A program made the position numbers and the translations under genes. The notes under the pieces were generated by a model that did not search any database, was not told where the DNA came from, and saw nothing but the letters and a program-made list of their open reading frames with translations. This document shows, piece after piece, positions 6,781-11,330 of a stretch of DNA of 64,000 nucleotides (positions are counted from its first letter, which is position 1; every line of letters begins with the position of its first letter). The stretch lies in the NCBI GenBank assembly GCA_013239625.1, contig MU053513.1, positions 3,640,303-3,704,302 on the forward strand, given 5' to 3'. This DNA is from Lama guanicoe. Taxonomy: Eukaryota.

Positions 6781-8579
6781 GGGGGCAATTCAAGATGGCA
6801 GCATAGGAAGACTTTGAACTTACTCCACCTATAGACACACTGAATCTGCAACTACTAGAACAATTCCTCCTAAAGAAGAACTGAGGGCTGATTAAACAGC
6901 TTCTGCACAACAACAATAGGAGAGGCAGAGGCATAATATCGACAGGAACCCCAGCCCTGACGCAGTGATCTGCAGTAGGGAGGGATAACACTGAGGTGCC
7001 TGTGTGCGGACTTATCCACTGTGGGGTGCGGTAAAAAAAACAATGGTTTAAAGGGCACTTAGACTATATGTGAAGGAAATCCATTTACTAAACTTAGAGT
7101 GTCTGCCGAAAGGACAGGGAACTGCATGAACTCTCTCCAGGGCCAGAGGCCCTGGAAAACACCTTTTTTGGGGCACTCTTTCTCCACCTGGGTAACAGGA
7201 TGGGAACATGGTTAACACTTTGGCTGCCTGTTAAGACTGCCCTAGCATGCCCCAGGCCCCTAGCCCATACCAGCTGAAGCCCCTCCGCCTCCACTCCAAC
7301 GTGTCTGTTGCCCCATGCTTGCACTTGCCCTAACTCTAACCTTCCTGCTAAGGCAGCTCTGGTGCAGAGCACCCTGAAGCCTGCACCTGCTTCGGCTTCA
7401 GCCAGCCTGCTAAAACCACTTGAAACATGCAGTCTGTACGTCAGATGCCCCTACAAAAGACCACATCGTTAAAACCAGGAGAGGTACCTGTTTTGCCTTA
7501 TTCATAGAAACAAATGCAGAAAGTTAAACAAAATGAAGAGTCAGATGAATATGTTCCAAACAAAAGAACAAGATAGAAACCCAGAAAAAAACAAATGATT
7601 CAGGGATAAGTAATTTAATTAACAGAGTTCAAAGTAATGGTCATTAAGATGCTCACCAAACTCAGAAGAATGGAGGAACACAGTGAGACCTTCAACAAAG
7701 AGATGAAAAATATAAGAAAGAACCAATCAGAGGTGAAGAATAAAATAAATGAAAAATACACTAGATGGAATCAACAGCAGATTAGATGCTACAGAAGAAC
7801 AAGTCAGTGACCTGGAAGGCACAGCAGTGGAAATGACCCAATCAGGACAGCAAAAAGAAAAAAAATTTAAGATGATGACAGTTTAAGGGACTTTCGTGAT
7901 GACATCATGTGTATTAACATTTAAATGAATAGGGTCCCAGAATAAGAAGAGAGAAAGGGACAGAAAACTTATCTGAAGAAATAACAGCTGAAAACTTTCC
8001 TATCCCAAGGAAGGAAACAGATGCCCAGGTCCAGGAAGCACAGAGTGTAAAACAAGGTGACCCTAAAGAAATCCATACCAAGACATATCATAATTAAAAT
8101 GGAAAAACTTAAAGAGAGAATTTTAAAGCCAGCAAAAGAAAACTAGTTACATCAGCTGATATTTCAGCAGAAACTTTGCAGGCCCAAAGAAGAGTGGTAT
8201 AATATATTCAAAGTGCTAAAAGGGATAAAACTTACAACTCTATCTGAAAAGATTATCATTTAGAATTGAAGGAGAGGTAAAGAGTTACCCAGACAAGCAA
8301 AACCCAAAAGTGTTCATCGCCAGCATCAGCCTTACGTGAAATGTTACAGGGTCGTCTTTAAGTGGAAAAGAAAGGCCATCACTAGAAATAAGAAAATAAA
8401 TGAAAGAAAAAAAGTTACTGGTAAAAGGCAACATATATAGTAAAGACAGTGGGTCAGCAACTCAAAAAGTCAATATGAAGGTTTAAAGACAAAATTAGTC
8501 AGTTATAACTACAATAGGTAGTTAAGGGATACACAAAATAAAAATGTGTAGTTATGATGTAAAAAACATAAAATGTGGA
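6781..8579 (+). mobile_element. LINE-1 5' portion (5'UTR, decayed ORF1, part of inter-ORF spacer)
   Basis: Begins gggggcaattcaagatggc, a typical L1 5' end. ORF1-like sequence ~7530-8360 (e.g. gtccaggaagcacagag, atttcagcagaaactttgcaggcc). Confidence 0.88.
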
Positions 8580-9119
8580 CAGTGCAAGCTGTCACCATCA
8601 CCACCTGGAGCTGCAGTGACCCTCCGCCTCGCTGCCCTTACCCGGCTGGCCACACCATACCATCAGAGAAAATCTTCAAACAGCACCAAACCTTCGAACA
8701 ATGAATAGAAGGTGTCCAGCTCTTCTAAGAGCAGTATCCTACCAAAATCCTGGTAATAATAGAATGATACAAGGGTGAGAAGCAGCTTCCTGTCCTGGAT
8801 AAAACAAAGTTCCTAGTGCCTGATCACGTCAATATGAGTGAACTCATCAACGTTAATTAGAAGGTGCTTACAGCCCAATGTTAATCAAGGCTTCTTCCTC
8901 TTAGTGAATAGACGCAGCATGATGAATGTGTCAATGGCAATTTGTGAAGTGTATGAAAGCAAGAGGGATGAAGATGGATTCCTTTACATGTTATATGCCT
9001 CTCGGGAGACTTTTGGAATGAAATTGTCCATGTAAGACTAGAAAAATGCATCTGTTCTAGGATTTTTTTTTGACCCTTACCAAGGGAAAAAAAAGGGATG
9101 TTACCAACTGAGATTGATC
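8580..9119 (+). pseudogene. MAP1LC3B: Processed pseudogene of MAP1LC3B (LC3B): 5'UTR remnant, full CDS relic 8657-9035, ~85 nt of 3'UTR
   Basis: Intronless. Reads (I)[61 protein letters not shown], then a +1 frameshift near 8850, then [18 protein letters not shown]...[24 protein letters not shown] mutated to ATA and three premature stops. The 3'UTR start (cccttaccaagggaaaaaaaagggatgttaccaactgag) is LC3B-like. Confidence 0.95.
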
Positions 9120-11330
9120 AAGGACAAGACAAGGGTGGCCAATCTCATTACTTTTATTCAACATGGTATTGGAAGTTCTAACCATGGTAACCAGACAAGA
9201 AAAAGGAATAAAATGCATCCAAACTGGAAGAGAAAAATTAAAACTGTTACTATTTGCTGACAACACGACTATATATAGAATGCCCTAAAGACTCCACCAA
9301 AAAACTTTTAGAACTAATAAAAGAGTTCAGTAAAGTTACAGAATACAAAATTAATACACAGAAATCTGTTGCATAAGTACAGATACACTAGTAATGAACT
9401 AAATGTAGACAACAGGTTTCTACTGTGTAGCACAGGGAACTTTATTCAATATCTTATAGTAACCTACAATGAAAAAGTATATGAAAAGGAACATATGTAT
9501 GTATATGTACGACTGAAACATGTTGTACATTAGGAATTGACACAACATTGTAAACCAACTATACTTCAATAAAAAAGAAATGAAGAAAACAATTCCATTT
9601 AGTATTACATCAACAAATAAAATACCTAGGAATAAATTTAGCAAAGGAGGTAAAAATGTACTCTGAGAACTAAGGAATCGATAAAGGAAATTGAAGATGA
9701 CACAAATAAGTGGAAATAAACTATGAGCTCGTGGGTTGCAAGAATGAATATTCTTAAAATATCCGTGTTACTCAAAGCAATCCACAGATTCAATGCAATT
9801 CCTTACAAAATACCCATGGCATTTTTCACAGAACTAGAACAAATAATTCTGAAGTTTGTATGGAACTACAAATGACCCCAAATAGCCAAAGCTATCTTAA
9901 GAAAGAAGAACTAAGCTAGAGGTATTATGCTCCCTGATTTCAAGGTATACTACAAAGCTGTAGTAATCAAAGCAGTATGGTACTGGCACAAAAACAGACA
10001 CATAGATCAAGAACAGAATGGAAGGCCCAGGAATAAAGCCACCCTTATACGGACAATTAATCTATGACAAAGGATGCCAGAATATGCAGTGAAGAAAAGA
10101 CATCTCTTCAATAAACGGTTTTAGAAAAACTGGACAGCTGCATGCAAAAGAATCAAACAAGACAATGCCCACACCACATACAAAAGTAAACTCAAAATGG
10201 ATTAAATACTTAAATATAAGATCTGAAACCATAAAACTCTTAAAAGAAAACATAAGTAGTAAGTTCTTTGACAATAATTTTAGCAGTATTTTTTTGAGCT
10301 CTCTCTCCTCAAGAAAGGGCAGCAAACACAAAAATAAGCAAATGAGACTACATCAAGCTAAAAAATACTGCACAGCAAAGGAAACCATCAACAAAACAAA
10401 AAGGCAACTTACTGAATGGGAGAAGATACTGCAAATGGTGTATCTGATAAGGAACTGATTTCCAAAATGTATAAACAACTCATACAATTAAATAACAAAA
10501 AATCCAAAACAGAAAACAACCCAATGAAAGAATGGGCAGAGGACCTGAACAGACATTTCTGCAAAGGAGACATTTAGATGGCCAAAAGAATCATAAAAAG
10601 GTGTTCAACATGACTAATCATCAGGGAAATGCAAATCAAAACCACAACGAGATGTCATCTCACACCTGCCAGAATGGCTATTGTCAAAAAGTCAATAAAA
10701 AAGTGTTATCAAAGGTGTAGAGAAAAGGGAACACTTGTGCACTGTTGGTGGGAGTGTAAATTGATGCAGCCACTATGAAAAACAGTGTGAAGTTTCTTCA
10801 AAAAACTAAAAATAGAACTAGCATATGATCCAGCAATTTCACTCCAAGCTATTTATCTGAGGAAAATGAAAACACTAATTCAAAAAGATAAACACACCCC
10901 ACTGTTCACTGCAGTATTATTTACAATAGCCAACTGTGAAAGCAACCTACGTGCCCACAGATAGATGAATGGATAAAGATATAATATGGTATATATATTT
11001 TATATGTGTATATATATATGTATGTGTATGTATATATATAAAAATGGTATATTACTCAGCCATAAAAAAGAATGAAACCTTGTCATTTGCAATAACATGT
11101 ATGGACCTAGAGAGTATTATGCTATATAAGTCATACGGAAAAAGACACTGAGTCATGGGGATATAATATACACCATAGTGAATATAGTCAATAATATTGT
11201 AGTAACTTTGTATAGTGACACATGGTAACTAGACTTAAAATGGTGATTATTTTGTAATATATAAAAATACTGAATCACTATTTGTACATCAGAAACTAAT
11301 GTAAATTGTAAGTCAGTTATACTTAAATAC
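9120..11330 (+). mobile_element. LINE-1 3' portion (ORF2 from RT domain to C-terminus, 3'UTR)
   Basis: Resumes at the RQGxP..LLFN.VLEVL RT-coding motif. ORF 10165-10458 (TPHTKVNSKWIKYLNIRSETIKLL) is ORF2-like. Confidence 0.92.
9402..9576 (+). mobile_element. Short 5'-truncated younger L1 3' end nested in the older L1 ORF2
   Basis: agcacagggaactttattcaatatctt...aactatacttcaataaaaaa interrupts host sequence aatgaacta/.../gaaatgaagaaaacaattccattt. Confidence 0.8.

Follow-up and report, generated by a model that had tools for sequence, protein, structure and literature searches.

The 64,000-nt window analyzed here, a stretch of contig MU053513.1 of the Lama guanicoe assembly (G000:C1064), raises the question of how a copy of a cellular mRNA came to lie between two parts of a LINE-1 (L1) element. 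Three parts follow each other on one strand: an L1 5′ arm (6781-8578), a spliced copy of MAP1LC3B (8579-9120), and an L1 3′ arm (9116 to about 11330). A preliminary description of the locus had proposed this order, from an L1 5′ part through a same-strand LC3B cDNA to an L1 3′ part. It was borne out when 29 sibling copies were aligned at each junction, which placed the last L1 base on the left at 8578, immediately before the first retrocopy base at 8579, and the first L1 base on the right at 9116. The same description preferred a double template switch, from L1 RNA to mRNA and back, and named an ordinary retrocopy followed by a deletion as the alternative. The alternative is favored here, with a probability of roughly 0.8: the LC3B retrocopy inserted into the spacer of a resident L1, and a deletion at a microhomology followed. 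The signature of the left junction, the younger-looking retrocopy, and the frequency of deletions and nested inserts among sibling L1s support this order of events and disfavor the double switch. Counted against it were the need for two events and the fact that no ortholog with an undeleted L1, or with a retrocopy still carrying its tail, came to light.

The L1 5′ arm (6781-8578, + strand) contains the 5′UTR, a decayed ORF1 whose position (about 7533-8360) was taken from L1 anatomy, and the beginning of the inter-ORF spacer; two fragments of this arm gave no Pfam match for ORF1. The L1 3′ arm (9116-11330, + strand) starts inside the reverse transcriptase domain of ORF2 (RVT_1, E = 1.6e-4, a match below the cut-off), and continues through the 3′UTR to a decayed tail. 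Relative to L076 and L082, two siblings that are intact, the element lacks about 2.17 kb, which agrees with the earlier statement that the 5′ half of ORF2 is missing, and the missing stretch was not found elsewhere in the window. Mean distances to 10 two-armed siblings were 0.242 for the left arm and 0.241 for the right, the terminal branches were 0.14 and 0.15, and the divergences of the two arms did not differ (P = 0.42). The right arm fell inside a 15-row set (support 95/96) alongside seven copies that had been chosen by the left arm, a set that a shorter alignment did not resolve, and carried the old state at 30 of the 35 sites that separate a shorter-branched clade. The two arms thus belong to one old L1 subfamily and are of the same age. 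Arms of different subfamilies had been named beforehand as a finding that would speak against template switching, and this was not what was observed. Collinear, same-strand arms of one subfamily are what a double switch would leave, but every model predicts a shared subfamily, so that template switching gains no support from it.

The inserted part was traced to its parent gene. A genome search with 8570-9125 returned eight matches: besides the window itself, these were three exons of a gene with introns on C9322 and a further four loci that matched less well. The parent, MAP1LC3B (G000:C9322:2537892-2546765), encodes an intact 125-aa LC3B when spliced, and the peptide from exon 4 matches a Camelus dromedarius entry at 100% identity, which marks the host as a camelid. 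Intron-free alignment of the four exons with 8579-9112 gave identities of 77, 80, 93, and 84%, and the introns are precisely absent: the four blocks adjoin in the window, where GT-AG introns lie between them in the parent (30 kb around the gene compared). The processed pseudogene (8579-9120, + strand; PF02991, E = 1.5e-14) consists of 78 nt of 5′UTR, a dead coding sequence (8657-9035, + strand), and 85 nt of 3′UTR, matching the composition given earlier. Its start codon has changed from ATG to ATA, and stops and one +1 frameshift interrupt the reading frame. The 5′ end, 78 nt upstream of the start codon, probably corresponds to the transcription start; the sequence context there fits an initiator consensus. 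At the other end, the copy stops at 3′UTR position +85, within L1 sequence and without poly(A), and the AATAAA signals of the parent lie about 170 nt to about 1.5 kb further downstream. No second copy of 8561-8578 was found at the right junction, and hence no two-copy target site duplication (TSD), so that neither a poly(A) nor a TSD of its own was found for the retrocopy, as first reported. Both absences would be expected of a double switch; under the favored reading, the poly(A) would have been lost by deletion.

Two other origins were considered and rejected. An origin in the parent locus, from an L1 there by splicing or read-through, is contradicted by the L1 content of the 30 kb around the parent, which is limited to a 65-bp match; in addition, both junctions lie away from exon borders. 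A propagated family of composite retroelements would have further copies sharing the junctions, and none was seen among the matches listed, in searches that score the best candidates; no other locus among them spans either junction. The product is a dead sequence, and nothing about it points to a function or to spread.

The left junction is blunt, and the L1 sequence there has no homology to the sequence upstream of the parent. The last 18 L1 bases (8561-8578, + strand) start at an endonuclease (EN)-like site, GT/AAAAAA, where most siblings have TC/AAAAA and 17 nt, and may represent the surviving left TSD copy of the retrocopy. When the arm in the window and four intact siblings were scored for any one of eight EN hexamers, 6-7% of positions had such a site 13-19 nt upstream, and 10-11% had one at 10-20 nt; the motif list and the distance were chosen after the site was seen. 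Since GT/AAAAAA differs from the strict TT/AAAA consensus and the test was framed post hoc, the weight of an EN-like site at TSD distance is limited to a factor of several and no more. In a study of target-primed reverse transcription (TPRT) by L1, the TSDs of full-length pseudogene insertions measured 12-18 bp, TT/AAAA was the preferred site, and the 5′ end showed an extra G with microhomology that was slight or absent (PMC11702581). The MAP1LC3B copy resembles the processed pseudogenes of that account in being spliced, in its blunt 5′ junction, in its EN-like site at a 12-18-bp TSD distance, and in the G before the first mRNA base, which the host sequence also explains. It differs from them in having no poly(A), distal 3′UTR, or right TSD, and in its target, an L1 minus 2.17 kb.

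The double switch would explain the left junction differently. In a single insertion in an early artiodactyl, reverse transcription would have passed from the 3′ end of the L1 RNA to the LC3B 3′UTR at GAUCA(G), run to the 5′ end of the mRNA, and returned to the L1 RNA in the spacer, 2.17 kb upstream. The second jump would be an unguided one into the middle of the L1 RNA that happened to land 17-18 nt from an EN-like site, which has a chance of 6-11%.

At the right junction, the window reads GATCA (9116-9120, + strand) followed by A, and GATCAG occurs in both donors, the older LC3B 3′UTR and L1 ORF2. The present parent lacks ATTGATCA, 4 nt having since been lost there. The overlap is nevertheless real, because the older state of the 3′UTR, with ATTGATCA, is carried by two of the three other LC3B retrocopies (L013 and L014), and the third is close; the microhomology of about 5 nt that had been noted at this junction thus stands against the older 3′UTR. 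An overlap of at least 5 nt arose in 0.7% of random UTR-to-L1 joins (200,000 simulated), and the right join appears to have been guided by homology. The 5-nt overlap is equally compatible with a deletion, with a template switch, for which it would supply 5-6 nt of homology, and with internal priming.

Priming is the starting point of a one-step, EN-independent insertion of the break-repair type, in which a broken ORF2 end would have primed on LC3B mRNA at GAUCA(G), and the cDNA would have been joined 2.17 kb upstream in the resident L1. The missing poly(A), the missing TSD, the overlap, and the target loss would all result from this one event, which would also fit a younger retrocopy. EN-independent L1 insertions, as described in PMC1920257, share with this locus the absence of poly(A) and TSD, the loss of target sequence, and the capture of cellular RNA (such insertions accompany target deletions), and microhomology is also present here. 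However, the insert at this locus is mRNA alone, and its 5′ end has an EN-like site at TSD distance, which a one-step insertion would have to treat as coincidence. The class is also rare, with 21 loci in that source, compared with later deletions in about half of the siblings described below. We therefore regard a one-step origin as improbable.

The combination of an EN-like left junction and a right-hand overlap would be covered by another history, in which a two-part LC3B-L1 chimera, formed by a single switch, was inserted at the EN site of the spacer, and recombination with the homologous 3′ half of the host deleted the intervening sequence. Chimeras of mRNA and L1 are known, 17 of them in human (Law and Burns, 10.1101/2025.02.02.635956). 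In these, sense mRNA from near the first exon is joined to L1, as it is here; the mRNA lies 5′ of a mostly full-length L1, often joined at a splice site, and inside one TSD, whereas here the join falls within the last exon and L1 is present upstream as well. Insertion of such a chimera would be expected to leave a patch of younger sequence where the 3′ arm begins. Old states were instead found at 3 of 4 diagnostic sites in 9116-9400 and at 27 of 31 further along, and the divergence of this stretch matches that of the rest of the arm, in a test that has few sites and would allow a short patch. A chimera of this kind is very unlikely to have been the source.

Sibling L1s provided a base rate and a natural control. 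At least 500 bp of internal L1 sequence, and up to 3.9 kb, had been lost in 11 of 20 siblings, which were the best spacer matches among 40 scored of 800 candidates; one inverted and one 3′-truncated copy were scored as undeleted in this tally. Internal deletions are thus common without any mRNA, which speaks against the double switch. In sibling L089, about 25 nt downstream of the point that corresponds to the left junction in the window, a retrocopy resembling RPL10 (PF00252, E about 1e-4, below the cut-off) sits in antisense; it has a decayed tail and is flanked by 16-nt repeats alike at 11 of 16 positions. Its orientation, tail, and repeats identify it as an insertion at the DNA level. The same sibling has a tail-less L1 piece from another subfamily between old arms, replacing about 1.6 kb of the host and grouping in a clade (support 100/98) with shorter branches. 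L089 therefore demonstrates that both ingredients of the two-step history, and the same final geometry, arise without a switch to mRNA.

The ages of retrocopy and L1 were compared as well. The retrocopy branch carries 25 weighted changes in 362 non-CpG sites (5′UTR excluded, ambiguous sites weighted half). From the rates of the L1 arms, 39.7 changes were expected; the expectation was 49.0 when all differences from the sibling majority were used, and 38.1 with private changes. Against 38.1, the observed number gives a ratio of 0.66 (CI 0.42-0.97, P = 0.016), and the polarized ratios ranged from 0.51 to 0.66, with P values of 0.016 or less. The differences between retrocopy and parent, summed over both branches, amount to 35, which is also below 38.1. 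The three outgroup LC3B retrocopies used for polarization have derived changes in common and represent roughly a single lineage, and the L1 yardstick is possibly inflated by unsampled differences among source elements. At non-degenerate sites alone, unpolarized, 20 changes were observed versus 23.1 expected (ratio 0.87, P = 0.30). The comparison of LC3B with L1 divergence that had been suggested beforehand thus makes the retrocopy younger when polarized, whereas the strictest dating allows equal age. Diagnostic residues place the retrocopy further: it has a codon for Cys96, which was found in artiodactyls and whales only (named entries among 120 proteins listed), and Met121, a position at which Val is present in both the parent and the camel entry, so that its formation would fall between the artiodactyl change and the camelid one. 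The three other LC3B retrocopies have Ser in place of Cys96, and the copy in the window is younger than they are. Among 63 metagenome loci, no mammalian LC3B was found, ruminant LC3B included, and the top protein identity was 88%. From these comparisons, the retrocopy is probably younger than the surrounding L1.

For the double switch, it is a point in favor that the strictest dating allows equal age (P = 0.30), and the polarized dating is a point against. Precedent exists in tripartite LINE chimeras (PMC2104539) and in two-RNA insertions, of which nine were reported in a cell system with 99 L1 and 235 pseudogene insertions (PMC11702581). The tripartite WEIRD-MgSINE-MGL elements of Magnaporthe and B2-U6-L1 of mouse (PMC2104539, PMC4476161) are similar in their three same-strand, retro-derived parts with a LINE at the 3′ end. 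They are described with one 14-16-bp TSD and with non-LINE RNAs 5′ of the LINE rather than internal, whereas here both outer parts derive from one L1, as its collinear arms, and no recognizable TSD brackets the element, although age may have erased one. Tripartite structures can also result from two independent events (PMC4476161). On balance, we find a double switch unlikely, to the same degree as a one-step insertion.

No recognizable TSD surrounds the whole element, the top match being an out-of-register 8-mer; a TSD is still visible in L076, which is of similar age to the L1 in the window. The outer flanks are unique, and neither of them yielded an empty-site model. Within the 3′ arm, a secondary short L1 3′-end insert of another type (9401-9577, + strand; about 175 bp) has no clear TSD, and about 10 nt of host L1 are gone at its insertion point. 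A gap of about 190 nt is present in the L1 3′UTR near 11145. These two features, and the absence of a whole-element TSD, had been overlooked in the earlier account. A 12-nt repeat, GAAAAAGACACT, has copies at 11139 and 11355; the idea that these form the TSD of another short 3′-end insert was rejected because the L1 does not resume past the second copy. A host gene that could serve for synteny was not evident among ORFs of at least 95 codons, read by eye, and no Rfam match was found.

An assembly artefact fusing an L1 and a retrocopy was weighed against sequencing runs. The assembly consists of 55,231 contigs, and the read evidence covers the left junction alone. Of 24 listed runs, 14 contain 85-94% of the words sampled from 8400-9400, and these 14 carry five different organism labels; the best-matching run may be the source of the assembly itself. 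Contigs from X15 and X17, two of four runs examined, bridge the left junction and are about 95% alike, while no piece across it was found in the other two, X7 and X9, where absence proves nothing. One RNA-labelled run and one guessed to be RNA bridge the left junction at a depth of 4-8, from which no transcription is claimed. Fusion during assembly is extremely unlikely to explain the locus.

The insertion-then-deletion history would proceed as follows. A full-length L1 inserted, as both arms show. ORF2p would then have nicked the spacer of this L1, which was probably already resident, and copied LC3B mRNA there. A deletion would subsequently have joined GATCAG of the 3′UTR to GATCAG of ORF2, removing 2.17 kb of L1 together with the poly(A), the right TSD, and up to about 1.5 kb of UTR. 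At some point, the short L1 3′ end seen at about 9401 inserted as well. The order of these events, the full length of the cDNA, and the repair route are what we infer from the final arrangement. For human mRNA-L1 chimeras, multi-species alignment separates sequential from single events, according to Law and Burns (10.1101/2025.02.02.635956).

The literature searched, mostly outside subscription papers, described neither this locus nor any L1-mRNA-L1 case, and the supplementary tables of Law and Burns may contain closer cases. As read here, the locus is one dead retrocopy in one dead L1, and is of little significance in itself. It does carry a caution: old full-length L1s are often hit again and deleted, as in 11 of the 20 siblings, and an arrangement of arm, tail-less insert, and arm forms without a template switch, as in L089. 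If, on the other hand, the LC3B copy and the L1 had arrived together, ORF2p would be able to exit L1 RNA, copy a host mRNA, and return to the L1 RNA, which would provide a route for swapping internal parts of L1 elements.

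Internal losses of at least 500 bp were found in 11 of 20 old sibling L1 copies (L076-L095), which were chosen by their match to the inter-ORF spacer. In five of the 11 deleted copies of this spacer-selected set (L078, L086, L089, L092, and L094), the left breakpoint lies no more than ~200 bp from the spacer start, which may reflect either a fragile spot or the way the copies were chosen. In L089 (G000:C12521:12276101-12286100), ~1.6 kb of the host L1 is replaced by a tail-less fragment of a different L1 subfamily (L089:4576-5791), flanked by the old arms of L089. This layout reproduces the geometry of the window element, with L1 sequence as the insert. 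The spacer of L089 also carries an antisense RPL10-like retrocopy (L089:3750-4410) with a decayed tail and flanking 16-nt repeats, at a site ~25 nt from the position struck in the window L1.

The 3′ end of the window L1 contains a 12-nt direct repeat, GAAAAAGACACT, at 11139-11150 and 11355-11366, which brackets the final 200 bp of the element and adjoins a ~190-nt gap in its 3′UTR. Directly downstream of the L1 is a short inverted repeat (11384-11419; 36 nt, 94% self-complementary). Further L1 pieces occupy 20600-25000, 37850-39500, 50350-51700, and 61700-62400 of the window; two of them, 50353-51030 and 51032-51676, adjoin in opposite orientations, arranged as in a 5′-inverted insertion. A long purine/pyrimidine-rich simple repeat tract spans 35390-35870.

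Within G000:C9322:2546515-2546770, the parent LC3B gene has lost 4 nt at 3′UTR position +78 and encodes Val121, where the ruminant, hippo, and whale entries among the matches listed have Met; residue 121 adjoins Gly120, the processing site. Three older LC3B retrocopies (L012, L013, and L014), each on a different contig, share derived changes that are not found in the parent, e.g., at codons 35 and 49. Judged by these shared changes, the three copies look as if a single older pseudogene, or a variant transcript, had been their common source.
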